This document shows, piece by piece, positions 1 to 64,000 of a stretch of 64,000 bases of DNA. Every line of letters starts with the position of its first letter. The first letter of the stretch is position 1. The stretch lies in the IMG/VR virus record IMGVR_UViG_3300033993_000240, one strand, 5' to 3'. The notes beneath the pieces were generated by a model. The model did not search any database, was not told where the DNA came from, and saw nothing but the letters and a program-made list of their open reading frames with translations. The DNA is from an uncultured virus (IMG/VR IMGVR_UViG_3300033993_000240). Lineage: Duplodnaviria; Heunggongvirae; Uroviricota; Caudoviricetes. The translations under genes were made by a program, and so were the position numbers.

Positions 1-24
1 GAATTCTTCGTTTAAAAAAGCCAT
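1..24 (-). CDS. 5' end of DUF669-like ssDNA-binding protein (partial)
   Basis: Identical to the start of 33497..33982 (MAFLNEEF). Confidence 0.7.
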
Positions 25-27
25 GAT

Positions 28-432
28 TTACTCCTTGGGGATAATTTTGAAAGATGGGCGGCCAGGCTTGGCCGTGATTGCACCGGCAAGCGGTTTGGTA
101 ATGGACTCATCTGCTGCCTTCCAGATGGCCATGTTGATCTCAGGCTTCCAGCGAAACAGCTTGGCCAAGTGATCGGTCAGACCGAACTCAGCGGCAAGCT
201 CTTGCACCTTGTCTCCGTCAACCTTGCGGTCGATGCGGCCAACGATCTTGATCTCAAATCGACCAGGCTCGACGGTCTCTGTGCCTTCAAGGTTTTCGGC
301 AATAGTTGCCAGCTTCTTGATGTGGTCCTCAATATCGCGTCGATCCGCTGTCGCATCTTCTTCCTGCTTCTTGCAAGCCAGCCACATGGTGGCCAGCTCA
401 TTCATGTCATTGGGCAAAGTCTTGGTAGTCAT
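28..432 (-). CDS. Conserved phage protein in recombination module (134 aa)
   Basis: Conserved in both units; ATGA overlap with the AAA gene. Confidence 0.75.
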   Translation of the reverse strand: MTTKTLPNDMNELATMWLACKKQEEDATADRRDIEDHIKKLATIAENLEGTETVEPGRFEIKIVGRIDRKVDGDKVQELAAEFGLTDHLAKLFRWKPEINMAIWKAADESITKPLAGAITAKPGRPSFKIIPKE

Positions 433-1106
433 GCTTTGCCTCCGATCTTGGCAATGATTGCACCCAGATCAGGCGCTTCCCAAGCCTCCAATTTGCCAGA
501 GCGATCCTTGGCCAACCAAAGGCCATCAGAGTCGCACATCAGCGCACGCTGGGTCACACCCTCGGCATCGCGCTCAACACGCAGCGCCAGCACTTCATCA
601 AAGAAGTAAGGCAGGCCTTGTGTCAGGCTCTTGCCAGGCATGCCTGGGTTGTAGAGCATCTTGCCCATCTCATCGGTTGACTTCTCCAGCTTGGCCGACA
701 TGTAAACATGCTTGCCTGGCAAATCGCGGAAGGCGCGAATCAGCTCCTGCATGGTGCTGTTCATCTCGCCATACGCTGCGCGGCCATCCTTAGACTTCTT
801 CATCTCATGGGACAACACCACCTCAGCAACTTCGCTGATCGAGTCAAGCGCCACCGACTGAAAGCCTGCGGCCTCCTTGCTGTCTCTGGCCCATGTGAAG
901 GCCTCGCGCAAGTCGTCCATCGAGGCGATCTCGATGTAAGGCAGGTCAGCGTCCTGAATGGACAGCAGGCCACCCTCGGCACTGAGAACGATCACATTGG
1001 GCAGGGTCTTGACGAGCGTGGTCTTACCAGCACCAGCCTGTCCATACACCAACAACTTCACTCCATTGGCAGACAAGCTGCCGGTCGATTTCAAATTGAT
1101 AGCCAT
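429..1106 (-). CDS. AAA_24 / Sak4-like ATPase (putative ssDNA-annealing recombinase)
   Basis: Walker A YGQAGAGKTT, SAEGG, Walker B VALDSISE, AKDRSG; near the SSB and nuclease genes. Confidence 0.8.
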   Translation of the reverse strand: MAINLKSTGSLSANGVKLLVYGQAGAGKTTLVKTLPNVIVLSAEGGLLSIQDADLPYIEIASMDDLREAFTWARDSKEAAGFQSVALDSISEVAEVVLSHEMKKSKDGRAAYGEMNSTMQELIRAFRDLPGKHVYMSAKLEKSTDEMGKMLYNPGMPGKSLTQGLPYFFDEVLALRVERDAEGVTQRALMCDSDGLWLAKDRSGKLEAWEAPDLGAIIAKIGGKA

Positions 1107-1153
1107 TTGGCTCTCCTATTTTTTGCACCTCCGTCTGGGAATCAGTTCGAGGT

Positions 1154-1195
1154 GTGCTTGCATCATAAACCAAAAATAAGGTATAGTGCAAGCAC
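1154..1195. promoter_or_regulatory. Overlapping divergent sigma70-like promoters inside a 9-bp inverted repeat
   Basis: + strand TTGCAT-N18-TATAGT; - strand TTGCAC-N18-TATGAT; arms GTGCTTGCA/TGCAAGCAC; lies between divergent operons. Confidence 0.7.
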
Positions 1196-1226
1196 TTCCG
1201 CAAATATTTTTTCTAAGGTGCAAATT

Positions 1227-1412
1227 ATGATGACTGTTGAGCAGATCAAAAAACGGCTGGAAGATGCCAATCTCAAGCGAGTGGCCGAGAATGCTGGCGT
1301 GCATCCAGCCACGGTTTACAGGTTCATGCAAGAGGAATCCAAGCCCCTGTATGAGACGGTCAAAGCCCTGAGCGACTACCTCAGCAGGCAGGAGGCCACA
1401 ATCAATGGCTGA
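1227..1412 (+). CDS. Cro-like HTH regulator (61 aa)
   Basis: LKRVAENAGVHPATVYRF helix-turn-helix; conserved in unit B. Confidence 0.8.
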   Translation: MMTVEQIKKRLEDANLKRVAENAGVHPATVYRFMQEESKPLYETVKALSDYLSRQEATING

Positions 1413-3414
1413 CCTCTCAAAAGTGCTCGGTGGACCTTGGGCACCACCACCAGAAAAACTCGTCGCACCACCAGAGGCGCAGCTCATTGACGCAATGCGT
1501 GCGGCAGGCCTTGAGCCACCAGACGAAGTCTTGATGGATGGAAAAATTCATCGATTCCGATCAGGCACCAAAGGCGCACCTGGCCACGGTGACAAGCCAG
1601 GCTGGTATCTGGTGTTCGGTGATGGCATCCCAGCTGGTCGATTCGGATGCTGGCGAGCAGGCATGGAAGTGACATGGCGTGCAGACGTAGGAAGAAAACT
1701 CACGCAGACCGAGGAAATGTCACACGCCAAGCGACTGGCCGAGGCCAAAGCCCTGCGAGACGCAGCACTCGAGCGCCAGCACCAAGTGGCCAGCGACACA
1801 GTCGAGAAAATATGGACAGGCGCACAGGCAGCACTTCCAGATCATCCCTACTTGGCCAAAAAAGGGATTCAAACGCATGGTGCAAGGGCAACAGGAGACG
1901 GTCGGCTGGTGCTGCCACTTTATGACGAAGATGGAACTCTGGCCACCCTGCAATACATCGACCACGAAGGCGGCAAGCTCTATCACCCAGGCGGTCAGAC
2001 AGGTGGCAAGTTCTGGATGGTAGGCTCACTAGATGAGCCTGGCACACTGTTCGTGGCCGAGGGATTCGCTACCGCAGCCACAATCCATGAAACCACCGAC
2101 AGGCCAGTCGTGGTGGCCTACAGCGCCAGCAATCTGGTGCCTGTCACTGGCACACTCAGGGAAATGTATGGAGCAACTCAAGACATCGTGATCGTCGCAG
2201 ACCATGACCAAAGCGGTGTCGGCCAACGCTACGCAGAGCAAGCCAGTGCCAAATACGGTGCACGCATGGTGATGCCTCCGATCCTCGGTGATGCCAACGA
2301 TTATGCACAGGCTGGCCACGATCTGGCAGGCCTACTGATGCCAATCAAAGACGACTGGCTCATCCCAGCCGATGACTTCTGCGCCCAGCCAAGCCCCATC
2401 AGCTGGCTGGTCAAGCGGTGGATTCAATCCCAAGCCTTGGTGATGGTCCACGGCCCAAGCGGTGGCGGCAAGACATTCGTGGTGCTCGACTGGTGCCTGC
2501 GCATGGCCAGCGGAACAGAAGACTGGGCAGGCCACAAGGTGCGCCAAGGCAACGTGGTCTATCTGGCAGGCGAAGGCCACCACGGTCTGCGCGGCAGGGT
2601 AGCAGCATGGAAGCACCACCACAAAGCAGGCAAGCTGGCCATGTGGCTCTCAAAAGATGGTTGCGACCTCAACACCCCGACCGGATACCTCAAAGTGGTC
2701 GAGCAAGTAAGAATGCTGAAAGACAGACCCAGCGTGATCGTGGTCGACACCCTGCACCGATTCCTATCAGGCGATGAAAACAGCGCACAGGATGCCAAGA
2801 CCATGCTGGACGCATGCAACGCACTCATGCAGGAATTCAACTGCTCGGTGATCTTGGTGCACCACACAGGCGTGGCTGAGGAAGCCCAGCACAGGGCGCG
2901 AGGCTCAAGCGCATGGCGAGGTGCTCTGGACATCGAGATCAGCATCGTGCCAGGCAAAGAAGGCGTGCCCATGCAGATTGTGCAGCGCAAATCCAAAGAC
3001 GCAGAACTGGCCGAGACTATCTACGTTGAGCTGCAACAAGTGGCCATCCCAGGCTGGCGCGATGAAGACGACCAGCAAGTGACAAGCGCTGTGATCGTCC
3101 AAGCTGAAGCCCCCACAGCCCCGAAAAAAGAGTCGAAACTGGACGCGCACCGCAAAGCATTCGAGAACGCATGGTGGGGTACAGGCGCTGAAATACGCGA
3201 GGGTTTACCCTATGTCAGCAGGTCAGCACTCAAAGACAAGCTGGCAGCCGATGGCAGAAAACCCAGAACGATCGAGAACGATCTGAGCGCGGCCTACCCA
3301 GAAAAACTAATCGGTGCACTCATCCTGTCCGAGATCATCAGCCCACTTGAACACGGCTGGATGGTGATCGATGATGTGCAAGCCAGTGCCATGATGATGC
3401 GAAAAGGTGGCTAA
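1405..3414 (+). CDS. Primase-helicase (TOPRIM + AAA_25/RepA-like helicase)
   Basis: HPYL..KG, VAEGFATA, IVADHD, GDANDY TOPRIM motifs; GPSGGGKT Walker A; VVDTL, GDEN, LVHHTG, RGSSA. Confidence 0.88.
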   Translation: MADLSKVLGGPWAPPPEKLVAPPEAQLIDAMRAAGLEPPDEVLMDGKIHRFRSGTKGAPGHGDKPGWYLVFGDGIPAGRFGCWRAGMEVTWRADVGRKLTQTEEMSHAKRLAEAKALRDAALERQHQVASDTVEKIWTGAQAALPDHPYLAKKGIQTHGARATGDGRLVLPLYDEDGTLATLQYIDHEGGKLYHPGGQTGGKFWMVGSLDEPGTLFVAEGFATAATIHETTDRPVVVAYSASNLVPVTGTLREMYGATQDIVIVADHDQSGVGQRYAEQASAKYGARMVMPPILGDANDYAQAGHDLAGLLMPIKDDWLIPADDFCAQPSPISWLVKRWIQSQALVMVHGPSGGGKTFVVLDWCLRMASGTEDWAGHKVRQGNVVYLAGEGHHGLRGRVAAWKHHHKAGKLAMWLSKDGCDLNTPTGYLKVVEQVRMLKDRPSVIVVDTLHRFLSGDENSAQDAKTMLDACNALMQEFNCSVILVHHTGVAEEAQHRARGSSAWRGALDIEISIVPGKEGVPMQIVQRKSKDAELAETIYVELQQVAIPGWRDEDDQQVTSAVIVQAEAPTAPKKESKLDAHRKAFENAWWGTGAEIREGLPYVSRSALKDKLAADGRKPRTIENDLSAAYPEKLIGALILSEIISPLEHGWMVIDDVQASAMMMRKGG

Positions 3415-3422
3415 GAATGAAT

Positions 3423-3534
3423 CCCCCTAGCCCCCTGAATCCCCCTAGGGGGCAAATCAGGGTTAGGGGGCAAAACGCTCGAAAAGCCCCCTCCCCTCCC
3501 CTCACACCCTTTAGGGTGAGGGGGACAGGGGGGC
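3423..3534. repeat. Two C-rich/G-rich inverted repeats (candidate replication origin)
   Basis: CCCCCTAGGGGG palindrome with flanking arms, then a second CCCC/GGGG hairpin, directly after the primase-helicase. Confidence 0.6.
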
Positions 3535-3562
3535 ATCGATGCGGCAGATTTTGAAGGTGAAG

Positions 3563-3571
3563 TTATCCACA
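3563..3571 (+). promoter_or_regulatory. Perfect DnaA-box sequence
   Basis: TTATCCACA beside the hairpins; single copy, unit A only. Confidence 0.3.
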
Positions 3572-3592
3572 GAAAGGTGAGCAAGTACTAAC

Positions 3593-3775
3593 ATGAACAA
3601 CAAACGTGAAACCCCAAACTTTGTAAGCTGGCAACATGACACGCTGGCCAAGTTTGCAACCGAGGTCTACATCCGACTTCAAGATGAGCAGGCCGCAAAC
3701 GAGCAACTCAGGATGGATTTAAAAGATGCCATGAAACTAGCGCGAATCGAAAACATGAAGGACAATGCAGCATGA
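3593..3775 (+). CDS. Small coiled-coil protein (60 aa)
   Basis: Conserved in both units; ATGA overlap with terS. Confidence 0.7.
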   Translation: MNNKRETPNFVSWQHDTLAKFATEVYIRLQDEQAANEQLRMDLKDAMKLARIENMKDNAA

Positions 3776-4224
3776 CCACAAAATCACACAAAGCAAAAGC
3801 TCCAACCAAGCGAACTAAGCCTGGCAGTGAAGATCGAGCCGTGATCGCTGACATGGTGCTAGAAGGAATGCGAAACGGCTTGAGCGCATTTAAAGCATGT
3901 CAAGCAGCTGGTGTTCCTCAAAGTACTTTTTCACGGTGGGTGGATGATGATGCTATCCTTGCGGAGAATTACGCGCGCGCGAGGGAAGACCTGATCGAAC
4001 GCATGGCCACAGAGATCATGGAGATCAGCGATCAAGACGTTGGCGTGGCCGTGGATGGCAAAAAAGACTGGGCGGCAGTGCAGAAACACAGACTACAGGT
4101 TGACACACGCAAATGGCTGTTGTCCAAACTGGCCCCAAAGAAGTTTGGCGACAAGATCGAAGTGTCTGGCGATCCTGCCAATCCCCTGGTGCAAAGAATT
4201 GAGCGCGTGGTGGTCAAAGCATGA
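3772..4224 (+). CDS. terS: Terminase small subunit
   Basis: HTH, YARAR, RLQVDTRKWLLSKLAPKKFGDK (Sf6/P22-like TerS pattern); upstream of terL. Confidence 0.88.
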   Translation: MTTKSHKAKAPTKRTKPGSEDRAVIADMVLEGMRNGLSAFKACQAAGVPQSTFSRWVDDDAILAENYARAREDLIERMATEIMEISDQDVGVAVDGKKDWAAVQKHRLQVDTRKWLLSKLAPKKFGDKIEVSGDPANPLVQRIERVVVKA

Positions 4225-5065
4225 GTGACCCATTCAAAATTACCGAGCCAACTTGCATCAGTTTTAGTGGTGGACGCACTAGCGCTTATATGCTGTGGCG
4301 TGTTATTCAAAGCGGGGGGGGCAACTTCCATGCCAAACCGTTGTCTGTTTTGCCAATACTGGCAAGGAAGATGAGGCCACTTTGAAATTCGTTAAAGACT
4401 GCTCAGAGCAATGGAACGTGCCAATTACTTGGCTTGAATATCAACCAGAAGCGCCAGGTTTTAAGGTGGTGGATTTTGAAACAGCCAGCCGCAATGGTGA
4501 GCCTTTTTCAAAAATTATTGATAAGCGCAACTACCTACCAAACCCAGTTGCTCGTTTTTGCACTGTAGAACTGAAGATTCAGCCTGAGCACAAATACCTC
4601 AAGTCAATAGGCTGGAGTGAATGGGACAACATGGTTGGCATTCGCGCAGATGAACCTAGGCGCGTGGCCAAAATCAAAGCAAATCCAAGCGGAGGTAAAG
4701 CAGGACCTGAACGAATCATGCCACTTGCACAGGCAAACATTACTAAGGACGATGTGGGCCTTTTTTGGCGCGATCAGGCTTTTGATTTAGGTCTGCCAAA
4801 CCATAATGGAGTTACATATCACGGAAATTGTGATTTATGCTTTTTAAAAGGCGCGTCACAAATTTTGTCCCTGATTGCAGAAAAGCCACAGCGAGCTGCT
4901 TGGTGGGCGAAAATGGAGACAAGCATTACTAATGCAAAGATTCAAAATGGTGGACGATTTCGATCTGATCGGCCTAGTTATGCACAAATGGCAAAGTTTG
5001 CTGATGAGCAAAAAGACATGTTTGATCACAATGAAGAAGCCATTGCATGCTTCTGTGGGGATTAA
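4221..5065 (+). pseudogene. PAPS-reductase-family (PP-loop, Fe-S) protein split by a frameshift at G8 (4314-4321)
   Basis: Frame from 4221 gives ISFSGGRTS and stops at 4385. The -1 frame continues CFANTGKE, RFCT..LK, GIRADE..R, NCDLCF, CFCGD. One extra G restores a single ORF. Confidence 0.8.
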
Positions 5066-5068
5066 GGC

Positions 5069-6292
5069 ATGACAGTTCTACAGCTTCCAACCCCTGAATG
5101 GGCATTGCCCTTGCTAGAGCCAAGCCGATACAAAGGCGCTTGGGGTGGCCGAGGCTCTGGCAAGTCCCACATGTTTGCCGAGCTGATGATCGAGGCCCAC
5201 ATCATGGACCAGAAGCGCAGAAGCGTCTGCGTGCGTGAAATCCAGAAGTCGCTCAACCAGTCAGTCAAGCGCCTGCTCGAAACCAAGATCGAGCAAATGA
5301 ACGCTGGCGCATATTTTGAGGTGCAAGAGGCCGTGATCAAGTCTCGCAAAGGCGATGGCATGATCATCTTCCAAGGCATGCAAAACCACACAGCCGACTC
5401 GATCAAGTCGCTCGAAGGATACGACTGCGCTTGGGTGGAGGAGGCTCAAAGCCTGAGCCAGACCAGCCTCGACCTGCTGCGGCCAACCATTCGCAAGCCA
5501 GAGTCCGAACTATGGTTCACGTGGAACCCACGCCAGCAGAACGACCCAGTCGACTTCCTGCTGCGCGGTCCAACACCGCCAAAGGATGCGCAAGTCCTGA
5601 AGGTCAACTTCACCGACAACCCTTGGTTTCCACAAGTCCTGCGAGACGAGATGGAGTACGACAAGAGGCGCGACCCAGACAAATATCAGCATGTCTGGAT
5701 GGGAAGCTACCTCACAAACAGCAACACCCGAGTGTTCAAGAACTGGCGCGTCGAGGACTTCGAGGCACCACCAGACGCAATCCACAGGCTTGGTGCAGAC
5801 TGGGGCTTCGCGGTCGACCCGACCACACTGGTGCGCTGCCACATCGTTGGCCGCACGCTCTACATCGACTACGAGGCCTACATGGTTGGCTGCGAGATCG
5901 TGAACACACCCGAGCTGTTCATGCAGGTGCCCGAGGCTGAGAAGTGGCCAATCGTGGCCGACTCAGCAAGGCCAGAGACGATCAGCCACATGAAAAAGAA
6001 TGGCTTTCCAAAGATCATGACAGCGGTCAAAGGCCCGAAGTCGGTCGAGGAAGGCATCGAGTTCCTGAAAAACTACGACATCGTGGTGCACCCTCGATGC
6101 ATCCATACCATTGACGAGCTGACGCTGTACAGTTACAAGCAAGACCCTCTGACCGGAAAAATCTTGCCGGTGCTCGAAGACAAGAAAAACCACGTGATCG
6201 ATGCCCTGCGTTATGCCTGCGAAGGTGTGAGACGATCGGCCATCACGAAGCCTGCAACATTCACTCCATTGCCAAATGTAAAGAAATGGTGA
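5069..6292 (+). CDS. terL: Terminase large subunit (PBSX/SPP1-like)
   Basis: GGRGSGKS, CVRE, WVEEA, TWNP; nuclease motifs GADWGF and NHVIDALRYA. Confidence 0.95.
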   Translation: MTVLQLPTPEWALPLLEPSRYKGAWGGRGSGKSHMFAELMIEAHIMDQKRRSVCVREIQKSLNQSVKRLLETKIEQMNAGAYFEVQEAVIKSRKGDGMIIFQGMQNHTADSIKSLEGYDCAWVEEAQSLSQTSLDLLRPTIRKPESELWFTWNPRQQNDPVDFLLRGPTPPKDAQVLKVNFTDNPWFPQVLRDEMEYDKRRDPDKYQHVWMGSYLTNSNTRVFKNWRVEDFEAPPDAIHRLGADWGFAVDPTTLVRCHIVGRTLYIDYEAYMVGCEIVNTPELFMQVPEAEKWPIVADSARPETISHMKKNGFPKIMTAVKGPKSVEEGIEFLKNYDIVVHPRCIHTIDELTLYSYKQDPLTGKILPVLEDKKNHVIDALRYACEGVRRSAITKPATFTPLPNVKKW

Positions 6293-6298
6293 GAAAAT
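6269..6298 (+). promoter_or_regulatory. Putative promoter before portal
   Basis: TTGCCA-N18-GAAAAT with TG extension; conserved in unit B. Confidence 0.35.
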
Positions 6299-6319
6299 CA
6301 CACAAAATGAGGATATAAC

Positions 6320-8380
6320 ATGGCCCGACTCTCAAACGATCAACGCCTTGCGAACCTGCACGACGAAGCCCTCGCGCAATTCGATGATGTGCAAAGCGCA
6401 CTGCGCGACGAGCGCTTGCAATGCCTGCAAGACAGACGCTTCTACTCCCTAGCAGGCAGCCAGTGGGAAGGCCCACTCTGGGACCAGTACGAAAACAAAC
6501 CCAAGTTCGAGGTCAACAAGATCATGCTGGCCGTGATCCGAGTGGTCAACGAATATCGCAACAACCGCATCACGGTGGACTTCGTCTCCAAAGATGGCGC
6601 TGAGAACGACAAGCTGGCCGAGGTCTGCGATGGCCTCTACCGAGCAGACGAGCAGGCATCGGTGGCCGATGAAGCCTACGACAACGCATTCGAGGAAGCT
6701 GTTGGTGGTGGCATTGGTGCCTGGCGCTTGCGCACAGTCTACGAAAACGAGGAAGACCCAGAGGACGATCGCCAGCGCATCCGCATCGAGCCAATCTTTG
6801 ACGCTGACAGCTCGGTGTTCTTTGACCTTGGTGCTAAACGCCAAGACAAGTCCGATGCCAAGTTCTGCTTTGTCGTCACATCGATGACGCGCCAGGCATA
6901 CAAAGACACATGGGGTGATGACCCGACCGACTGGCCAAAGATCATCCACCAGTATGAATTCGACTGGTGCACTCCCGATGTGGTCTATGTGGCCGAGTAT
7001 TACAAGGTCGAGGAAAAGACCGAGACCATCCGCATTTTCCAGACCATCACAGGCGAGGAAGAACGCTATACCCAAGCCGACTTTGCCAAGGACGAAATGC
7101 TTGAGGAAACTCTGGCAGCAATCGGCACAGTCGAAGTGCGCCAGCGCAGGATCAAGACCAAGCGCGTGCACAAGTACATCATGTCGGGTGGCAAGGTGCT
7201 CGAAGATGCTGGCTACATTGCAGGCAAGTGCATCCCCATCGTGGTCGTCTATGGAAAACGATGGTTTGTTGACAACGTCGAGCGATGCATGGGTCATGTG
7301 CGTCTGGCCAAGGATGCCCAGCGCCTCAAGAACATGCAGCTGTCCAAGCTGGGCGAGATCAGTGCCTTGTCCTCAGTCGAAAAGCCAATTCTCACGCCTG
7401 AACAGGTCGCTGGCCATCAAGTCATGTGGGCAGAGGACAACCTCAAGGACTATCCGTACCTGCTGATCAACCCGATCACAGACCAGAACGGCAACCAGGC
7501 AGTCAGCGGTCCAGTGGCTTACACCAGATCGGCAGCCATCCCACCGGCAATGGCCGCGCTCTTGCAGATCACCGAAACCGACATGCAGGACATCTTGGGC
7601 AACCCAGCTGGCGCAGATAAGATGGTCAGCAACATCTCAGGCAAGGCCGTGGAGATGATTCAGGCCAGAGTTGATGGCCAAGCCTTTATCTACATGAGCA
7701 ACTTTGCCAAAGGCATGAAGCGCTGCGGTGAAATCTGGTTGTCAATGGCCAAGGACATCTACACCGAAGACAAGCGCAAGATGAAGACCATCGCGCCAAC
7801 TGGCGAAGCTGGCATGGTCGAGCTGATGCAGCCAACCATCGATCAGGAAACTGGCGAAGTTGTCATGGCAAACGACCTGACAAGCGCCACATTCGATGTG
7901 ATCGCAGACGTTGGACCATCGAGCAGCACCAAGCGCCAGGCAACTGTCCGCGCCCTGACCGGCATGCTCCAGATCACCCAAGACCCAGAGACAGCCCAGG
8001 TCATCACGGCAATGGCCATGATGAACATGGAAGGCGAAGGCATCAGCGATGCAAATGCGTATTTCCGCAAGAAGCTGCTGCGCATGGGTGTGGTCAAGCC
8101 GACTGACAATGAAGCTGAAGAACTCATGGCCGAAATGCAAGGCCAGCCTCAAGACCCGAATGCCATGTACCTGCAAGCCGCAGCTGAGAATGAAACTGCC
8201 AAGGCAGCCAAAGCCCGAGCCGACACCGTCGAAACCGTGGCCAGCGCAGAACTCAAACGCGCTCAAACGCTGGAGACGCTGGGCAAGGTCGATGAGACCG
8301 CACAGAACATGGCGCTCACAAATGCAGAGGCAGTGCAACAAATTTTGCAAGGCCAGATCGTTCAACCAGTTGTAAGATGA
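6320..8380 (+). CDS. Portal protein (P22 gp1-like)
   Basis: 686 aa after terL; DRRFY..GSQW, GGIGAWRL, G.VR.AKDAQR..N, SGKAV, DVGPS..TKR. Confidence 0.92.
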   Translation: MARLSNDQRLANLHDEALAQFDDVQSALRDERLQCLQDRRFYSLAGSQWEGPLWDQYENKPKFEVNKIMLAVIRVVNEYRNNRITVDFVSKDGAENDKLAEVCDGLYRADEQASVADEAYDNAFEEAVGGGIGAWRLRTVYENEEDPEDDRQRIRIEPIFDADSSVFFDLGAKRQDKSDAKFCFVVTSMTRQAYKDTWGDDPTDWPKIIHQYEFDWCTPDVVYVAEYYKVEEKTETIRIFQTITGEEERYTQADFAKDEMLEETLAAIGTVEVRQRRIKTKRVHKYIMSGGKVLEDAGYIAGKCIPIVVVYGKRWFVDNVERCMGHVRLAKDAQRLKNMQLSKLGEISALSSVEKPILTPEQVAGHQVMWAEDNLKDYPYLLINPITDQNGNQAVSGPVAYTRSAAIPPAMAALLQITETDMQDILGNPAGADKMVSNISGKAVEMIQARVDGQAFIYMSNFAKGMKRCGEIWLSMAKDIYTEDKRKMKTIAPTGEAGMVELMQPTIDQETGEVVMANDLTSATFDVIADVGPSSSTKRQATVRALTGMLQITQDPETAQVITAMAMMNMEGEGISDANAYFRKKLLRMGVVKPTDNEAEELMAEMQGQPQDPNAMYLQAAAENETAKAAKARADTVETVASAELKRAQTLETLGKVDETAQNMALTNAEAVQQILQGQIVQPVVR

Positions 8381-8398
8381 ACGAAAAAGCGCGAGAAT
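8370..8398 (+). promoter_or_regulatory. Putative promoter for scaffold-coat transcript
   Basis: TTGTAA-N17-GAGAAT; identical in unit B. Confidence 0.4.
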
Positions 8399-8404
8399 GT
8401 GATA

Positions 8405-8435
8405 AACGGCATCCACCCAGCCGTTCTAATGGGTG
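8405..8435 (+). promoter_or_regulatory. Predicted H-type RNA pseudoknot in scaffold leader
   Basis: S1 AACGGC/GCCGTT, L1 ATC, S2 CACCCA/TGGGTG, L3 CTAA. Confidence 0.6.
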
Positions 8436-8454
8436 AGTTTGATGGGGTCAGAAG

Positions 8455-9351
8455 ATGAACACAAAGGCAGTATCAGGAGAAGAAAACCAAGACGATGACA
8501 CCATTGTTGTTGAGGACGAAGGCCAAAGCACTGAGCAAACCACCGATGAGCACAAATCCATCGATGACCAGGGCGATGACCAGACAACCGAAGATGACGA
8601 AGGCGACAGCGACGAGGTAATCGTATCCATTGGTGAGGAAGCGCCACCTCCCGAAGAACAGACTCATGCGCCTGAATGGGTACGCGAGCTGCGTAAGACG
8701 AACAGAGAATTGCAACGGCAAAACCGTGAACTGCAAGGCAAGCTACAAAGCACCGCACAGACTGAGACCAAGCCGGTCGTGCTAGGCAAGAAGCCAAGTC
8801 TTGAAGAACATGACTATGACGCTGACAAATTCGAGGCAGCACTGGCCGATTGGTTTGAGCGCAAGCGACAAGCCGATGAAGCCCAAGCCAAGCAAGAAGC
8901 TGAAGTTATGAATCAGCAAAAAGCATGGCAAGCCAAACTGGATGGCTATGGCAAGGCGAAAGCCGAGCTGAGAGTCAAAGATTTTGAAGACGCTGAGGCC
9001 GTGGCCCAAGAGTTGTTCAACATCACCCAGCAAGGCGTGGTGCTCCAAGGTGCAGATAATCCTGCGCTCGTCATTTACGCACTTGGCAAAAATCCAAAGA
9101 AGGCCAAAGAGCTGTCCGACATTAAAGACCCTGTAAAGTTTGCCTTCGCGGTAGCGAAACTGGAGAAAGAATTGAAAGTTACAAACCGTAAGGCAGCCCC
9201 GCCACCCGAGAGAATTGTGTCAGGAACTGGCCGAGTATCTGGGGCGGTGGACTCAACCCTCGAACGGCTGCGAGAAGAAGCGGCTCGTACTGGCAACCTG
9301 ACGAAAGTCATCCAGTACAAGGCGCAGAAGCGAGCAGCTTCATCTAAATGA
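8455..9351 (+). CDS. Scaffolding protein (P22 gp8-like)
   Basis: Acidic N-terminus, coiled coils and basic C-terminal helix; between portal and coat. Confidence 0.85.
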   Translation: MNTKAVSGEENQDDDTIVVEDEGQSTEQTTDEHKSIDDQGDDQTTEDDEGDSDEVIVSIGEEAPPPEEQTHAPEWVRELRKTNRELQRQNRELQGKLQSTAQTETKPVVLGKKPSLEEHDYDADKFEAALADWFERKRQADEAQAKQEAEVMNQQKAWQAKLDGYGKAKAELRVKDFEDAEAVAQELFNITQQGVVLQGADNPALVIYALGKNPKKAKELSDIKDPVKFAFAVAKLEKELKVTNRKAAPPPERIVSGTGRVSGAVDSTLERLREEAARTGNLTKVIQYKAQKRAASSK

Positions 9352-9368
9352 TTTTTTAAGGAAATACC

Positions 9369-11355: not shown

Positions 11356-11356
11356 C

Positions 11357-55504: not shown

Positions 55505-55990
55505 ATGTCCACGATTGAAGTTCAACCACCATACCCAGCATTTGCTGGCGCTGACGGTCAGCCGTTGGAGAATGGTTATATCTGGATTGGGACGGTTAAT
55601 CTGTCTCCACAGACAAATCCGATTAGCGTCTATTGGGATGCAGCCAATACCATTGCAGCACCTCAACCTATTCGCACATTGAATGGCTACCCATCACGCA
55701 ACGGTACACCTGCGCGCTTCTACGTTGCCAGCGACTACAGCATTCAAGTTCTGGATTCCAAAGGAAGCGTGGTATATACATCACTCAATGACAATTTGTC
55801 TGGTAATGGATTTGTAGCATCAAACGCGACTGGCAATGGTGTGCAGACGATATTTGCGGTCTCATCTGTGCCAAGTGCAATTTTCATCAATGGCGTGTAC
55901 CAGAACCAAAACACTTACACAGTGTCTGGCGGTAATGTGACATTCAGCCAAGCACCCCCATTCAATTCGGTGATTGAATTCTTGATTTAA
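55505..55990 (+). CDS. Stand-alone head-binding domain + small docking-like domain (161 aa)
   Basis: DGQPLENGYIWIG as in the unit A spike N-terminus; C-terminal GNGVQT.F...FINGVYQ...VTFS.AP. Confidence 0.7.
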   Translation: MSTIEVQPPYPAFAGADGQPLENGYIWIGTVNLSPQTNPISVYWDAANTIAAPQPIRTLNGYPSRNGTPARFYVASDYSIQVLDSKGSVVYTSLNDNLSGNGFVASNATGNGVQTIFAVSSVPSAIFINGVYQNQNTYTVSGGNVTFSQAPPFNSVIEFLI

Positions 55991-56000
55991 GGAGAACAGA

Positions 56001-56558
56001 ATGTTAAAGACCGTCACAAATTCCATCAACGCAAGCCAGATTCAAACGCCAATCACTTTGCCTGGTAATGTCACTCTATCAACTGGCAACTTAGTCATCG
56101 GCACATCTGGCAAAGGAATCGACTTTTCTGCCGATCCGTCAGCTCCAGGCATGACCAGCGAGTTGTTTGATGACTACGAAGAAGGTACGTTTACGCCAAC
56201 AATTGCGGGTCAAATCACCGCTGGAACTGGCACTTACACAACTCAAGTAGGCACATATACTAAGATTGGCCAAGTTGTTTATGTAAGTCTTAATTTAGCT
56301 TGGTCTGCTCACACTGGAGTAGGTGATATGCAAGTAAACGGATTGCCCTTTACTGTCAATTCATCAGTCCATTCACAAATGTCAAACGGCACTTATGATT
56401 TGTCCTTGACCGCCTTAAATATGCTTTTAACTAGAGCGCAAAAAAGTGGAACATTTATAAAATTGCTTCAATCACCAGTTGGCGGTGGTGCATGGAATGG
56501 CGTTCCAATGGACACAAGTGTTACTGTATTAGAAATCACAGGCTTTTACACAGTCTAA
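56001..56558 (+). CDS. Short tail fibre-like protein (185 aa)
   Basis: GKGIDFS, DDYEEGTFTP, G.YTKIG..V, GLPF. Confidence 0.7.
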   Translation: MLKTVTNSINASQIQTPITLPGNVTLSTGNLVIGTSGKGIDFSADPSAPGMTSELFDDYEEGTFTPTIAGQITAGTGTYTTQVGTYTKIGQVVYVSLNLAWSAHTGVGDMQVNGLPFTVNSSVHSQMSNGTYDLSLTALNMLLTRAQKSGTFIKLLQSPVGGGAWNGVPMDTSVTVLEITGFYTV

Positions 56559-56568
56559 AGGACAAATC

Positions 56569-57789
56569 ATGGCACTGACAAAAGCAACCTATTCCATGAT
56601 TTCAGGGGCGTATGTAAACGCCTTGGATTATGGCGCTGATCCTACTGGTGTTGCTAATAGCCAACCAGCAATTCAAGCCGCATTGAATACTGGCGCAAAT
56701 GTGTTTTTGCCCCGTGGTAATTACAAAATTACAACGACACTGCAATTCACATCAACAGATCAGGTGTTTTTTGGTGAGAACGGAAACGCACTTAACGCCA
56801 CCACTTCAAACAACCCAACTGCTGCGGTCGGTATGTCGCAGATTTTTACGCAGTCGGCAATTTTGATGTTTAGTTGCAATGATAAGCAAGGCGTTTCAAT
56901 CCGAGATATTGTTTTCAATGGTTGCGCCCTTGCAACTGGTGGTATTGATTGCACAGGTGCTGGAGCGCCTGGAGGCATTGCCTTTGGTATTGTGTTTAAC
57001 AATGTTGGCATCAACTCCATTCTTGGAATTGCTCTTGACACAGCAGAGGCAGTTGATGCTCAGTTTTACAACATCAACATTCAAGGGTACGACTATTTAT
57101 CTAACATAGTCACAACTCGAGGTATTAGTTGCGGTGCAACAAACAATAATTTTTATGGTTGCCGTGTTGAAGGTTGCACCAACGGCGCTTTTATTATTGG
57201 CACTATCAACCACTTTTTTGGCTGCACGTTTGCAAACCCAACCGGCACTAACATCAAAATTGGTGGAAACATTTCGCAGTTAAGTTTCAACGGGTGTTAC
57301 CTTGAAAATGGCGTCACAATTTATTCAAATTCGTCATTTGCATATGGATGCGTTGATTTTGTAAATTGTTTTATTCAAAATGCAAACGTCAGCAATTTGA
57401 TTGACCTAACAAATGCCGCATCCTCAAGTCAAGTCAATTTTATTGGTGGCAGATTCCATGAAACGTCTGGGTCGAGCAACATAACTGCACCAAGTGGCGT
57501 GTCTGTAAATTGCATCAATGTTGGTCAGACTACACCAACATTTTCTGGTGCTGGCTCATTTTTGTTGCAGACAAACGCAAACGTGTTTTCATCGGAACCA
57601 AGAACAGTGTTTCCAGGCTATGTTGCTGTTGATGGTTCTACGGCACAAATTCACGCTGGTGTTGGAACTCCACAAGGCGCTGTTACAGCACCTATTGGCT
57701 CTATATTCATGCGTGAAGATGGCGGCGCAGGAACATCTTTTTACGTCAAAGAATCCGGTACTGGAAATACTGGTTGGGTTGCAAAATAA
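56569..57789 (+). CDS. Tailspike beta-helix depolymerase (406 aa)
   Basis: VNALDYGADPTG..S..AIQAA...VFLPRGNY; C-terminal GTPQGAVTAPIGS...YVKESGTGNTGWVAK. Confidence 0.8.
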   Translation: MALTKATYSMISGAYVNALDYGADPTGVANSQPAIQAALNTGANVFLPRGNYKITTTLQFTSTDQVFFGENGNALNATTSNNPTAAVGMSQIFTQSAILMFSCNDKQGVSIRDIVFNGCALATGGIDCTGAGAPGGIAFGIVFNNVGINSILGIALDTAEAVDAQFYNINIQGYDYLSNIVTTRGISCGATNNNFYGCRVEGCTNGAFIIGTINHFFGCTFANPTGTNIKIGGNISQLSFNGCYLENGVTIYSNSSFAYGCVDFVNCFIQNANVSNLIDLTNAASSSQVNFIGGRFHETSGSSNITAPSGVSVNCINVGQTTPTFSGAGSFLLQTNANVFSSEPRTVFPGYVAVDGSTAQIHAGVGTPQGAVTAPIGSIFMREDGGAGTSFYVKESGTGNTGWVAK

Positions 57790-57837
57790 CCGTGCCAGTG
57801 CGGAACACTGGAATTTGATTTTGATTGGAGTATCAAA

Positions 57838-58086
57838 ATGGCTCTCGAAAAAGTAAACGTAGTAGATCGTATTGAAGTTGTTGAAAACGGCTCAATTCAA
57901 GTTCGCACCAAAACCGCAATTCTCGAAGATGGCATTGAAATCAGCAGTAAATTTCATCGTCACGTTGTTGTGCCTGGCGCTGACGTAAGTGGTGAAGATG
58001 ACAAAGTGAAAGTGATTGCAGCATCTATTCACACCTCTGACGTAATTGCAGCATACGAAGCAGCCATCGCTGCACAAGGAATCTGA
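57838..58086 (+). CDS. Tail-fibre-associated small protein (82 aa)
   Basis: VDRIEV..NG.IQVR...EDG.E...FHRHV..PG. Confidence 0.65.
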   Translation: MALEKVNVVDRIEVVENGSIQVRTKTAILEDGIEISSKFHRHVVVPGADVSGEDDKVKVIAASIHTSDVIAAYEAAIAAQGI

Positions 58087-58087
58087 A

Positions 58088-58441
58088 ATGGCTGGTAATT
58101 CACAAATTGCATTTGCACCACTTGGCAAGACCATTGTGGTGGCAGCAGCTGCATCTGCACCTGTTGGCATCCAAGCTCCTGTCTATGCCAAGTTTGACCC
58201 ACAAAATGCAGGTCAGTACCGATTTATCAACAATGGAACCACCACTGTGTTCTTGGGCACTGGCCCAAGCGCAGCAGAGGCTACGGCCAATGCAGTGGCT
58301 CCTGTGGCCGGTACGCCTTCAGCGGCCATCGTGCTGGTGCCTGGCGCTGTTGAGGTCTTGCGCTTCAACATCGACACCTACTTCAGCGGCCTGTCCAGTT
58401 CGGCAGCCACCGTTTACATCACGCCAGGCCAAGGCCTGTAA
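58088..58441 (+). CDS. Small structural protein (117 aa)
   Basis: Ortholog of 25644..25997. Confidence 0.7.
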   Translation: MAGNSQIAFAPLGKTIVVAAAASAPVGIQAPVYAKFDPQNAGQYRFINNGTTTVFLGTGPSAAEATANAVAPVAGTPSAAIVLVPGAVEVLRFNIDTYFSGLSSSAATVYITPGQGL

Positions 58442-58458
58442 TGTTGGGGACTGACGTT

Positions 58459-58674
58459 ATGGCAGTAGAAAGCAACGAGATCGACCTTGTCAAATATGGC
58501 GTGCTCTGGCAAAAAGTGCAGGACATGGACAAAAAGATGGACAAGGTCGAGCGCCAGCTCGAAGAATTGGTGGCGCTGGCCAACAAAGGTCGTGGAGGCC
58601 TTTGGTTTGGCATGACCATTGTTTCTGGCGTATCTGCCGTGGTTGGTTACCTGCTTAATTATTGGAAGCATTGA
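58459..58674 (+). CDS. XhlA/holin-like protein
   Basis: Ortholog of 26015..26230. Confidence 0.65.
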   Translation: MAVESNEIDLVKYGVLWQKVQDMDKKMDKVERQLEELVALANKGRGGLWFGMTIVSGVSAVVGYLLNYWKH

Positions 58675-58811
58675 AATATTTACTTGCGATGGTTTTAACA
58701 CTATCGCAAGTTTCATCAGTTGAATATTGGTGCGTTCGTTGGGCATGGACGGGTGATGTTTTTAATCGCAAAGTAGTATGCCTTGAGTGGAAAAAGGTAG
58801 AGCGAAAATGA
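58671..58811 (+). CDS. Small putatively secreted two-Cys peptide (46 aa)
   Basis: Ortholog of 26227..26367; leader varies, CVRWAWTGDVFNRKVVCLEW invariant. Confidence 0.6.
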   Translation: MKYLLAMVLTLSQVSSVEYWCVRWAWTGDVFNRKVVCLEWKKVERK

Positions 58812-59448: not shown

Positions 59449-60056
59449 GTGACGAAAAACCATCAGATATATTGAGCAAGGTGCTGTCCTATGTTGACAG
59501 CCCATTCAAGTTGTTTGCCCTGATACTCATGGCGGTGTTTGCGTTTGCTGGATACTTTGTCTGGCAGAACCAAGAGCTGCTAATGGGCGCATACAAAGAG
59601 TCCAAAAAGATGCCAAGCATTGTTGAGGACAGGGTGGAAGACGCAGCTGCTCACTTGTTCAAAACCACCAATGCTACCATTGTGGCCGTGTTTAAAGTAA
59701 ACCCCATGTTTGGCACCAGAGTGCTGCATCGCGCCTACACCAAAGAAGGCCGAGACAAAACCAACGATGGGCTTGATGTGGGCCTGTTTACCCAGAACGC
59801 ATCCAACAACGCTGATGTCGTCAAGTTGATGGCCAGCGAGATACCTTGTGGTGAGTACAAGTCAGCACAATCCGAGATGGGCCTTTGGTATATCGCAAAG
59901 GGTGTCACATACACTTGCAGAATCAGCATCCCGCCTGATCCAAATCGGTTCGTGGGCCAAATTACTGTTGGCTGGGATAATGAGCCAGCCGACATTCAGG
60001 TGGCAAGAACCATGATGGAAATTGCAGCAACCATGCTTTCAAGGAGCAAACAATGA
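59445..60056 (+). CDS. Putative T4 T-like holin
   Basis: Ortholog of 27001..27612. Confidence 0.55.
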   Translation: MSDEKPSDILSKVLSYVDSPFKLFALILMAVFAFAGYFVWQNQELLMGAYKESKKMPSIVEDRVEDAAAHLFKTTNATIVAVFKVNPMFGTRVLHRAYTKEGRDKTNDGLDVGLFTQNASNNADVVKLMASEIPCGEYKSAQSEMGLWYIAKGVTYTCRISIPPDPNRFVGQITVGWDNEPADIQVARTMMEIAATMLSRSKQ

Positions 60057-60463
60057 TCGCACTCGACGCACTTTTAAACGTTGGCGGCAAGCTCATCGAC
60101 AAATTGATTCCAGACCCAGAGGCCAAGGCCAAAGCGCAACTGGAGTTGGCGAAGCTGGCGCAAGAAGGTGAGCTGGCAAAGATGGCCAACGACACCAAAC
60201 TGTTTGAGGTGGAACAACAAAACACCACAGACCGATGGACAGCAGACATGGGGTCAGACTCTTGGTTGTCTAAAAACATTCGCCCTATGGCCCTGATAGC
60301 CATCTTCTTAGCCTATTTCATCTTCACTGCAATGTCGGCCTTTGGCTACAACGCACAGGAATCCTACGTCCAGCTGCTTGGCCAGTGGGGACAGATCATT
60401 TTCTTGGCCTATTTTGGTGGCCGCACCGTTGAGAAACTCGCAGACATGCGGAGCAAAAAATGA
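60053..60463 (+). CDS. Holin (3TM-type)
   Basis: Ortholog of 27609..28019. Confidence 0.75.
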   Translation: MIALDALLNVGGKLIDKLIPDPEAKAKAQLELAKLAQEGELAKMANDTKLFEVEQQNTTDRWTADMGSDSWLSKNIRPMALIAIFLAYFIFTAMSAFGYNAQESYVQLLGQWGQIIFLAYFGGRTVEKLADMRSKK

Positions 60464-60897
60464 ACCTCACACCTCACTTCACACTCGAAGAACTAACGGC
60501 TTCAGAGACCGCAGAACGCAACGGCTGGGACAATAGTCCCAATGACACCGAGCTGGCAAACCTGACGCGCCTGGCAGACTTTCTGGAGCAGGTGAAGGTG
60601 GTGCTGGGTGGCAAGCCAATCATGATCAGCTCAGGCCTGCGCACCAAGCTGGTCAATGATGCGGTTGGAAGCAAAGATACCAGCCAGCATCGGACTGGAT
60701 GCGCTGCCGACTTTAAGGTGCCAGGAATGACACCAGACGAGGTGGTGCGCAAGATAATTGACAGCGGCATTGGTTACGACCAAGTGATTCGTGAGTTTGA
60801 TCGCTGGACCCACATCAGCATCTCAAACAGCGAGGACACCAGCCCACGAAAGCAGGCGCTGATCATCGATAAGGCTGGCACCAGACCTTACGCATAA
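60460..60897 (+). CDS. Endolysin, peptidase M15
   Basis: Ortholog of 28016..28453. Confidence 0.88.
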   Translation: MNLTPHFTLEELTASETAERNGWDNSPNDTELANLTRLADFLEQVKVVLGGKPIMISSGLRTKLVNDAVGSKDTSQHRTGCAADFKVPGMTPDEVVRKIIDSGIGYDQVIREFDRWTHISISNSEDTSPRKQALIIDKAGTRPYA

Positions 60898-61799: not shown

Positions 61800-61930
61800 C
61801 AATAGCCTCGCCAGACGCGCACATCCACCAGCCACAGCGAGACAAAGAACTCGCCACCAGAAAAGCCAATGCCAAACACTGGCCACTTGTGCATCAACGT
61901 GTCGATGCTGATGTGAATCTGCTTCTTCAT
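61799..61930 (-). CDS. Small protein (43 aa)
   Basis: Ortholog of 29358..29489. Confidence 0.55.
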   Translation of the reverse strand: MKKQIHISIDTLMHKWPVFGIGFSGGEFFVSLWLVDVRVWRGY

Positions 61931-62097
61931 GCCTTGGTCTCCTGTGCTTGCTGGCGCTCCAATTCCATCTTGACGCAGTGCAGAATCTGCGCGGCCAGAG
62001 TGCGCGTGTTGCGCTCGGCCATCTTGCGCAGCTCGATCTCGATGTCGGCAGGCAGCCTGATCGTCATGTATCGGTCTTTGATTTTTGAGGTGCTCAT
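61927..62097 (-). CDS. Arc-like RHH regulator
   Basis: Ortholog of 29486..29656. Confidence 0.8.
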   Translation of the reverse strand: MSTSKIKDRYMTIRLPADIEIELRKMAERNTRTLAAQILHCVKMELERQQAQETKA

Positions 62098-62570
62098 GAT
62101 GCCTCCGATGGACGCTCGACATATTCTGTCGCTGGGGTGTAAGGAAATGTGACTGGCACCATGCTTTCGCGATCGGTGTAGTAGGACTTGTGCTTCTCGT
62201 CAGTCTCTTTATCGGTATGCCAATCGTAAAAAACAATACCGTCTATGTCATAGGCTTGGCCATTAAAGCGATCAGCCTGTTTAAAGACACGGCTACAACG
62301 TTTATTTTGGAAAACGCCTTCACTGGCCTCATGCCATTCCCAGTCCTCGCCTGTCAGTGGAACCAATGGCAAGTACATCGCCAGCTTTCTGAACACGTTC
62401 ACTGCGTAAGGAGCAGAACTTCCAGAATGGCCCTCATCAGCAAACACGTCCAACAGCTTTAACACGTGCTTGCAAATTGCTTCTTGCATCTCGTCGTAGT
62501 ACTTGCCATCGTCGTCAAGCCAGCCAGCTGCGCGAAACTCCATCAAAGCATGCTTGTGAATGTTGTTCAT
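62094..62570 (-). CDS. Accessory phage protein (158 aa), unit B only
   Basis: EGHSGSSA, PLTGED.EW, QNKRCSRVFK motifs; replaces two unit-A genes. Confidence 0.78.
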   Translation of the reverse strand: MNNIHKHALMEFRAAGWLDDDGKYYDEMQEAICKHVLKLLDVFADEGHSGSSAPYAVNVFRKLAMYLPLVPLTGEDWEWHEASEGVFQNKRCSRVFKQADRFNGQAYDIDGIVFYDWHTDKETDEKHKSYYTDRESMVPVTFPYTPATEYVERPSEAS

Positions 62571-62932
62571 AAATTGTCCTTGTGTTGGTTGAAAAAGGCC
62601 TGAAGTTTGCCCTTGGCATCATCAGCACCTTTTCCCACTATACAACAGAATCTCACACTTTCAAGATAGGAAATCCAGTCTTTCTGCTCGGCACTCAGGC
62701 TGCCACCCTTGGTGCGCTTCATCTCCACCCAAAGCCCCCAAGCAGGGATGAACAGATCAGGCACGCCAGAGGAAACGCCTTCAGCCTTCAAGCGGCCAGC
62801 GGTGGCAGGACTGCGAGCGCCACCATTGGGAATCGCAAAGATGCGCACGCCTGGCCAAGTCTGGCGAAACCAGCGCACCAGCTCGCGCTGCTCCTCATGC
62901 TCGGTGGGAATACGATTGGTCAAAATGGGCAT
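62567..62932 (-). CDS. VRR-NUC nuclease
   Basis: Ortholog of 30118..30492. Confidence 0.88.
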   Translation of the reverse strand: MPILTNRIPTEHEEQRELVRWFRQTWPGVRIFAIPNGGARSPATAGRLKAEGVSSGVPDLFIPAWGLWVEMKRTKGGSLSAEQKDWISYLESVRFCCIVGKGADDAKGKLQAFFNQHKDNL

Positions 62933-63114
62933 TCGGCCTCCCACTTTGGGCAGGCATCCACCTCGGCAGCAAACTCAGCTGGCGGTGTCATGAAGAACTC
63001 GGTGCACAGGCCATCTGTGCCGTACATCTCGCAGGTATGGCAGCACTTTGGTGGGCCAGCCTTGATCCACTCGCGGTAGTCAACCAAGAATTGCGGCTCT
63101 GGTGGTCGGCTCAT
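62920..63114 (-). CDS. Small Cys-rich protein
   Basis: Ortholog of 30480..30674. Confidence 0.7.
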   Translation of the reverse strand: MSRPPEPQFLVDYREWIKAGPPKCCHTCEMYGTDGLCTEFFMTPPAEFAAEVDACPKWEAECPF

Positions 63115-63263
63115 TTCAGACCCCTTTGCATCAGCTTCACCCAGCACCGAGCGCAATGCCACTTGGTGCGCACCTTGACACCACCAAGCGGATCAGCCTC
63201 ACGGCTGCACACATCACAAACCTTGAGCTTGTGCATTCGATTCATTTGTTCTTCAACTGTCAT
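63111..63263 (-). CDS. Small zinc-finger protein
   Basis: Ortholog of 30671..30823. Confidence 0.65.
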   Translation of the reverse strand: MTVEEQMNRMHKLKVCDVCSREADPLGGVKVRTKWHCARCWVKLMQRGLK

Positions 63264-64000
63264 TCCCAGCTCCTTTTTATTACCCTAAAAAACTTTCCGT
63301 CCTTGCGATACTCGATCCACTCTGGTGGCGTGGCCATGTTCATGTTCTTAACCATGTCCTCCAGCGTCTTCACATTCAGACCACCAGGCACAATGCTGGC
63401 GCTGTTGGCGATACTCAGAAGCTGGCTCATTGCACGCTGGCCTGCATAGCCTTCATGCATGATCGGCAAATACTCGGTGATTGGCGTATCGCTCAGGCCA
63501 CCGTAGTAAGTCACGGCCAGCATCTCGATGCCAGAGGCCTTGCTGATGTGCTTGCGCCATGTCCAGCTCGTCACTTCCAACTCTTGGCCATCCAGACCCA
63601 TGATGTCGTCATTTCGCAACACCATCGATTTTTTTACTGGCTCAGGAAACTGCTCACCGCATGAAGGGCAAAGCATCACCGAAATGTGCACCAGCTCACC
63701 GCAGTGATCGCAAACCTTGACTGGTGCCTCGCCATTCCCATCGCCACCCTTCTTTGGTGGCTGCACATTGGTGATCGGTCCATGCGACTCGACCACACCA
63801 GCAAAGTCGAGAACCAAGCAATGATCGGTGTGGCTCTTTACCCTCATGCCACGGCCTGCCATCTGCACATAAAGGCTGGCGCTCATGGTCGGACGCAACA
63901 TCACCACCAGATCGATGTCTGGATAGTCAAACCCTGTGGTCAACACATTGGCATTGGTGAGCGCACGCACACGGCCAGACTTGAAGTCGGCCAACATGCG
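63260..64000 (-). CDS. SF2 helicase (3' part; truncated by window)
   Basis: Ortholog of 30820..32409. Confidence 0.92.
   Translation of the reverse strand, partial: RMLADFKSGRVRALTNANVLTTGFDYPDIDLVVMLRPTMSASLYVQMAGRGMRVKSHTDHCLVLDFAGVVESHGPITNVQPPKKGGDGNGEAPVKVCDHCGELVHISVMLCPSCGEQFPEPVKKSMVLRNDDIMGLDGQELEVTSWTWRKHISKASGIEMLAVTYYGGLSDTPITEYLPIMHEGYAGQRAMSQLLSIANSASIVPGGLNVKTLEDMVKNMNMATPPEWIEYRKDGKFFRVIKRSWE

Follow-up and report, generated by a model that had tools for sequence, protein, structure and literature searches.

Two related phage genomes in one record

The IMG/VR record IMGVR_UViG_3300033993_000240, from an uncultured virus of the Caudoviricetes, is 67,264 bp long, contains two terL genes and is given in its catalogue as linear and 100% complete. 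The window analysed here is the stretch of 64,000 nucleotides formed by bases 1-64000 of this record, and it holds two related phage genomes in head-to-tail order, referred to as units A and B, which meet within a stretch that we call R (Table 1). Self-BLAST of the window gave 11 colinear blocks of 83-95% identity (12 self-aligned blocks in the whole record), with offsets of 33958, 34146-34155, 33635, 34451 and 32444, and thereby bore out the claim of an earlier reading made from the letters alone (the sequence-only reading) that the core genes occur twice, in the same order and at such offsets. In total, 26,746 bases of A could be aligned with B at 89.8% column identity (88.8% by block), and unit B is 88.8% identical to A across ~80% of its length.

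The same reading had described many synonymous changes, distinct coat alleles and tailspikes, and core genes that are intact in both copies, and on these points the comparison of 19 open reading frame (ORF) pairs agreed with it. None of the 19 pairs contains an internal stop, and the terL, portal, helicase and Sak4 proteins of A and B are 98-100% identical, the codon differences being mostly synonymous (synonymous/non-synonymous: Sak4 26/0, terL 63/5, portal 112/14, helicase 88/8). Surface and injection proteins are the fastest diverging between the two units, and the tailspikes have only the N-terminal ~92 aa in common. An old internal duplication within one genome was rejected as the origin of the doubling: relatives match A or B at 86-90%, much as A matches B, and the closest relative switches window by window. 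The unit sizes predicted earlier, ~34 and 32.4 kb, hold for A (33,958 bp) and fail for B (33,301 bp), which is longer because its methylase cassette, at record 64850-65678, sits beyond the window; likewise, the record does not close near 66.4 kb, as had been suggested, but at 67,259 bp.

Table 1. Features of the two units and of their junction. Positions up to 64000 are those of the window, later ones those of the record.
Feature	Position	Strand	Description or basis	Copy in B, or setting
Unit A	1-33958		Complete phage genome with P22-like virion module, 33,958 bp once self-closed	
Unit B	33959-64000, on to record position 67259		Another complete genome from this group, with 33,301 bp	
Seam R	33837-34057		221 bp identical in A and B	5' part of ssb-like gene and 3' end of the gene upstream
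Record start	1-99	+	Exact copy of 33959-34057	Last 99 bp of R
First 127 bp of R	33837-33963	+	Exact repeat at record end, 67138-67264	Repeat lies outside the window
Sak4-like annealing ATPase of A	429-1106	-	PHROG 124, Pfam AAA_24	B 34575-35252, protein 100% identical
Primase/helicase of A	1405-3414	+	Toprim_3 and AAA_25, PHROGs	B 35552-37567
A-only PAPS-reductase-like gene	4295-5065	+	PHROG 424, E 5.5e-42; self-alignment gap	Between terS and terL
terL, P22-like portal, scaffold and P22-type coat of A	5069-10661	+	PF04466, PF16510, PF11651, PHROGs	B 38704-44283
Head-tail adaptor, head closure (gp10-like) and ejection proteins of A	11357-21898	+	PHROG 637, 578, 598, 770; PF11134	B 45127-55504
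Tailspike of A, single 831-aa beta-helix protein	21899-24394	+	PF12708, PF13229	
Tail-tip module of B, three ORFs	55505-57789	+	161 aa (weak head-binding match), 185 aa, 406 aa (pectate-lyase-like)	
Holin and M15 peptidase endolysin of A	27609-28453	+	PHROG 3427, 894; PF08291	B 60053-60897
SF2 helicase, Cas4-like exonuclease and SSB-like DUF669 gene of A	30820-33982	-		Start of ssb-like gene within R
B-only Tad3-family (Thoeris inhibitor) gene	62094-62570	-	PF25185, 115 bits vs cut-off 27	
B-only C5 cytosine methylase cassette	Record 64839-65682 (L001 4839-5682)	-	PF00145	Between helicase and Cas4-like exonuclease

An exact repeat at the junction

The sequence-only reading saw no seam between the two genomes, which was not borne out: a seam lies inside R and is flagged by both ends of the record. 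That R is identical in both units follows from the record ends, which reproduce 33837-34057 exactly when joined with a 5-bp overlap. It is the longest exact match between A and B (the next are 143, 137 and 126 bp) and the sole one of at least 150 bp, and it accounts for 221 of the 26,746 aligned bases (<1%) and, when exact matches of at least 25 bp are weighted, for 3.9% of the total. Cutting at R splits the record into the circles A and B of 33,958 and 33,301 bp, and all k-mers up to 222 bp are contained in one circle or the other, novelty setting in only at 223 bp, with one k-mer that spans the whole of R. With k set to 127, the circles merge at three places, 5117, 8887 and 33837. The length of the record is obtained exactly by adding a tail of 33,963 bp, which runs to the end of the initial 127-mer of R, to a loop of 33,428 bp, for which this 127-mer is both start and finish, and subtracting 127 (67,264). 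The usual k list of the assembler SPAdes is 21, 33, 55, 77, 99 and 127, according to the part of PMC8172020 that gives it, 99 and 127 being its last two values.

Based on these results, we conclude with a probability of about 0.91 that the record consists of two distinct phage genomes, A and B, joined inside R, most likely by a de Bruijn-graph assembler operating at k=127. The 67-kb doubled molecule is very likely not a real feature, although the duplication is real in the record. Four traits expected of such a chimera were found: a switch inside an exact repeat of at least k, a k-long end copy, no junction-specific sequence below the repeat length, and units that occur apart and close on themselves, as will be described below. 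In the source sample, A and B would have co-occurred, and their common stretch R would have collapsed to one path. A's own exit from R would have been disconnected, the record starting with 99 of the 127 bases needed, such that the path out of A could lead only into B and round the B circle, halting at the same 127-mer. The divergence of ~11% would have prevented the collapse of A and B elsewhere, and would also keep the record below concatemer filters. The assembly chimera, an option that had been rated at least as likely as a real cointegrate, is thus supported and placed at R; the cointegrate itself gained no support.

Such a cointegrate would be a circle of 67,259 bp, generated by a single homologous crossover inside R in a co-infected cell and present in sufficient abundance for assembly, from which headful packaging would yield mosaic progeny. 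When closed at its ends, the record does form a circle with two copies of R, as one crossover would leave it, and a homologous region (88.8% identity) and recombination genes are present. However, two separate circles yield the same geometry and account for every k-mer up to 222 bp, and the crossover would need to have hit exactly the longest exact repeat. Moreover, the transient product of one co-infection would probably constitute a small minority of the molecules. Taken together with the observations on other contigs, runs and relatives presented in the next section, these considerations make a cointegrate very unlikely.

The units in other contigs, metagenome runs and relatives

Contigs sought with a 100-bp pattern from R comprised two metagenome and three viral contigs. 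One of them (L086) is B closed on itself across R, in agreement at 1,853/1,853 bases, and another (L088, the same as L003) is A closed on itself across R, running from 30375 to 33958 and then from 1 to 1020, with 4 mismatches in 4,604. L089 is B to the left and ends within R, and the two remaining ones (L087 and L013) belong to other strains. None of these five contigs with the first 100 bp of R, a type of data in which rare forms are dropped, contains a path from A on the left to B on the right that extends beyond four sites in L088, which are discussed below.

The interior of both units is also found in other contigs. Some are identical to A over 3773-13114 and 11285-16766, or match 8924-14130 with one mismatch; others are identical to B over 42382-53652 and 44021-50183, or match 58745-67257 except for one mismatch and a 60-bp gap. 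A seam at the 143-bp match (5117/38752) or at the 137-bp match (8887/42522) was rejected: both repeats are phased correctly, contig L095 spanning them in A and pieces of run X14 in B, in either case without mismatches. The stretches that have no second contig as a check are 1021-3772 and ~16767-21899 in A and 53653-58744 in B, and a further strain switch in them would require a repeat of <127 bp.

The junction region was represented as contigs in 24 runs, all of them lake or freshwater metagenomes, and eight of these runs were compared with 24001-44000 at 98%. Both units were present at similar depth in four of the eight, and one side was missing in the other four, which ranked lower. In run X14, depth was 0 in 13/14 bins across 24001-33338 (0.36 in the remaining bin) and 62-79x over 34006-44000, where no other letters were listed and one unbroken piece of 6,228 bp was obtained. 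The first piece begins at 33886, within R, and the depth step between the missing A side and the present B side falls in R as well. Run X14, which is without the A side, is therefore not the source sample, and it provides independent support for B as a genome of its own whose boundary is R. In runs X21 and X24, bins of the A tailspike are missing and the B side is covered, partly with other strains mixed in; in run X18, the A tailspike is present at ~5x and the depth is 0 in the B-only bin 37341-38007. In the high-ranked runs, all of the other letters listed (40/40) are the allele of the other unit.

The sequence-only reading had named two separate circles as the observation that would speak against a doubled molecule, and these have largely been found, B occurring without A in X14, and A-to-A and B-to-B closures being present in other contigs, that of A with the four mismatches mentioned. 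For the cointegrate, the similar depth of A and B in four of the eight runs is in its favor, whereas B is alone at ~65x in X14 and each unit closes on itself elsewhere. The expectation that A and B are always together at equal depth does not hold either, since they are together in four of the eight runs, a comparison that tests a stable dimer and not a transient one.

It should be noted that several points weigh against the view that the join was made by an assembler. The assembler and its settings are undocumented for this record, and the reason given for the 99-bp start is our inference. A circular cointegrate crossed over inside R would yield an identical graph, and sequence alone cannot separate the two. 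The depths of A-only and B-only regions are similar in runs X1 (16.5 vs 9.5/21), X2 (35.8 vs 24.9/35.1), X3 (77.2 vs 57/73.4) and X8 (8.2 vs 5.4/6.2), as a 1:1 dimer would give. Contig L088 carries four consecutive B alleles immediately to the right of R (A positions 100, 154, 159 and 180), past which all 39 further diagnostic sites are those of A. The supporting contigs may stem from the same or neighbouring samples. Finally, a full-length single contig of A or B was not found with the R pattern in metagenome and viral contigs, nor with A- and B-cassette patterns in viral contigs.

Some of these points can be qualified. Runs X1, X2, X3 and X8 are among the top-ranked holders of the stretch spanning both units, and hence were selected for co-occurrence, which may reflect one bloom or campaign, or a bias of the ranking. 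The depths of A and B stay close to each other in these four runs although depth itself varies tenfold among them. The patch of four B single-nucleotide polymorphisms (SNPs) in L088 may be a short conversion tract or a popped bubble. As for the search in viral contigs, one cassette pattern was used for each unit, which gave five matches for B and three for A; these patterns and the one from R brought up just fragments of 1-12 kb, very near records being possibly omitted. Three of the five B-cassette matches (L090, L092 and L094) were rejected as unit B, having no alignment of at least 97%, and are other strains.

A different possibility is that a real recombinant monomer, with A to the left and B to the right of R, or recombinant concatemer junctions in the source sample guided the assembler through R by way of their read pairs, in which case the join would reflect a true crossover but a 67-kb genome would still not exist. 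Both units contain Sak4-like, SSB-like and Cas4-like genes, and the patch in L088 adjoins R. In addition, in a comparison of 7-10 relatives, 54-59% of the pairs of informative sites lying >300 bp from each other were incompatible by the four-gamete test, which is approximately the permutation level, and nearby sites were less often incompatible (values as low occurred in 0, 0 and 7 of 1000 permutations). This mosaic signal is confounded, however, as the relatives are metagenome contigs of which several are chimeric, synonymous sites can recur, and the signal concerns monomers. Besides, none of the five contigs joins the left of A to the right of B past the four SNPs of L088, and R offers a crossover <1% of the aligned length, or 3.9% of the exact-match weight, yet is the one repeat that an assembler was bound to run into, its switches being confined to repeats of at least k. 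We therefore consider an assembler guided by recombinant monomers or junctions quite unlikely. A more specific form of the cointegrate, in which a real circle of 67,259 bp from two co-infecting lake phages would have crossed over at the start of the ssb-like gene, this hot spot would also have left the patch in L088 as a conversion tract, and dimers would feed a near-free shuffling of alleles and tail modules in the group, is likewise very unlikely.

Some relatives of the two phages carry similar marks at their ends. In the viral collection, 485 relatives were counted for the ssb-like gene and at least 600 for the portal, and the phage group of A and B is abundant in freshwater. Its unit length is 33-35 kb, the GenBank record MW202867.1 being 34,522 bp. 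We surveyed all 11 records of at least 33.7 kb among the 80 kept loci of the 485 ssb-like relatives. Two of the 11 have 127-bp terminal repeats, at 33,934 and 35,508 bp; these are more distant (77-79% over half their length) and carry one portal module each. Three have no end copy, and one has an end overlap of 180 bp at 97%. In the other five (G001, G002, G007, G008 and G010), one end is an exact copy of 102-127 bp of an internal place, behind which there is a duplicate of 484 bp to 18 kb that is 87-92% identical. These end copies sit at different genes. Among the five, G001 comes close to being another double: at 60,673 bp it has terL twice, and the 127 bases with which it opens are found again at 33179, not far from the gene for head closure. 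G001 (L082-L085) also contains an exact internal repeat of 483 bp (5189/37315), which could be another switch point. End copies of the size of k at differing genes are the trace expected of an assembler, not what a biological crossover predicts; the similar doubles in relatives always have such a copy, which is a further argument against the cointegrate.

In what the CheckV (PMC8116208) and MetaVR (PMC12807716) papers state on this point, more than one genome length placed head to tail in a contig is ascribed to assembly, and the latter gives a concatemer cut-off of 1.4 in 21-mer frequency. This frequency is 1.100 for the present record and 1.067 for G001. Catalogue concatemers, as described there, are repeats of the same genome, whereas here two different strains are joined, and with 1.100 < 1.4 the record falls outside the definition; a two-strain double is thus not a concatemer in the MetaVR sense, yet it arises like one. 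According to the relevant passages of PMC8172020, chimeric joins between strains require similar abundance and long identical stretches, both of which fit A and B (R, and similar depth in four of the eight runs). The joins described there were mostly in bacterial genomes and at contig ends, while the present one adds a small circle in its entirety to another complete genome. Heterotype false duplication, as outlined by Ko et al. 2022 (PMC9516828), likewise presents two divergent haplotypes of one locus as separate regions, the haplotypes being those of diploid vertebrates, whereas the present ones are two free phage strains and the duplicated unit is a whole genome. One targeted search of the literature for two-strain whole-phage chimeras returned nothing relevant, which does not show that they are absent from print.

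Gene content and significance of the two phages

Genes were assigned by a PHROG scan of 81 ORFs, a Pfam scan and the comparison of ORF pairs between A and B. Each unit holds a P22-like virion module, with portal, coat, head closure, adaptor, ejection proteins and tailspike. The coats (window 9369-10661 vs 43009-44283) are 77% identical, compared to 98-99% for portal and terL, and the head-closure and ejection proteins are 70-92% identical. The 161-aa tail-tip protein of B carries the N-terminal anchor of the A tailspike; judging from its sequence, the tail tip of B possibly consists of an adaptor and a separate receptor-binding protein, with a different host range. The A-only PAPS-reductase-like gene gave no Pfam match. 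In the slot of the B-only Tad3 gene, A carries two other small ORFs (29656-30188), and the presence in B of a member of this type I Thoeris inhibitor family suggests a host with Thoeris. The methylase cassette of B contains long overlapping ORFs of 202, 273 and 131 aa, and one contig (L059) lacks 60 bp within it, at record 65591-65649.

According to PHROG and Pfam, the leftward module encodes a Sak4-like ATPase, an SSB-like DUF669 protein, a Cas4-like exonuclease, an SF2 helicase and a VRR-NUC nuclease. The sequence-only reading was therefore correct in noting a Sak4-like ATPase, an SSB and a nuclease, which it had linked to recombination between the two genomes; since each monomer has these genes, they are uninformative on the join. 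The sak4-like and ssb-like genes lie two genes apart in each unit, a pairing shared with the Sak4/SSB module of phage HK620, although here the module is known from sequence only. As stated in the abstract of PMC5928155, Sak4 and SSB of HK620 anneal DNA and support low-level recombination in vivo, without strand exchange in vitro; this abstract is silent on stable dimers. These activities are in line with recombinant monomers of A and B, the possibility regarded above as quite unlikely.

The absence of an integrase and of host DNA, which had been claimed earlier, was confirmed. Tyrosine integrase (PF00589) and resolvase (PF00239) are absent from the record, the control genomes being positive in 14/14 and 12/14 cases, respectively, and large serine recombinases had no separate search; there is no tRNA in the window, and the PHROG scan of the 81 ORFs revealed no host genes. 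A host was not found among species genomes: the eight portal matches there (L198-L205, 60-97%) sit in unrelated bins, seven of them on contigs of 2-21 kb and one on a contig of 35 kb, and, as judged by the listing, in which the flanks were not read, none of the eight is in a prophage setting. These are probably phage contigs binned by mistake. The portal of L198 is 97% identical.

These results bear on a last explanation, namely that the record represents a stable 67-kb entity, either a heritable doubled phage genome or tandem prophages carried by a host or an episome. In its favor, neither gene set is broken, and A and B occur together in four of the eight runs. Against this, X14 holds B without A, neither integrase nor resolvase nor host genes were detected as described, the closed relatives of 33.9 and 35.5 kb have one portal module, and no portal match in species genomes has a listed prophage setting. 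In addition, 67 kb would not be expected to fit into a P22-type head, which is filled by headful packaging and sized for ~34 kb. A stable entity of this kind is exceedingly improbable.

With respect to known phages, the closest GenBank record is MW202867.1 (Caudoviricetes sp., Manatee Spring), whose length of 34,522 bp matches one unit and whose DNA is 75% identical over 20-23% of two queries of 23-25 kb, with a portal identity of 72%. The groups of Ralstonia phages RSK1, Firinga and Hennie and of APSE likewise have a P22-like portal, coat, scaffold and terminase (portal identity 45% for RSK1 and 41% for APSE), and no named isolate with a portal identity >46% was found. Members of Lederbergvirus, the genus of P22, are characterized by an integrase-based temperate module and by DNA identity at the genus level. 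In contrast, A and B are without an integrase, gave no megablast match to the P22 group, and have a portal that is 42% identical to the best one of a Salmonella phage.

In terms of catalogues, tail-plus-loop chimeras of strains that are ~89% alike pass the 21-mer test and are catalogued as linear and 100% complete. Such chimeras inflate genome sizes and gene counts, can mimic recombination, and wrongly join accessory genes of different phages, in this case the A-only PAPS-reductase-like gene with the B-only Tad3 and methylase genes. A simple screen would be to look for records that have a duplicated terL or portal and in which one end repeats, exactly and over the length of k, a sequence from the interior. 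A cointegrate, if true, would mean that an intermediate of phage mosaicism had been observed directly in nature. Under the reading that we favor, an assembler-made join of two strains, the record is of little biological consequence: both phages are ordinary, and their group is abundant in freshwater.

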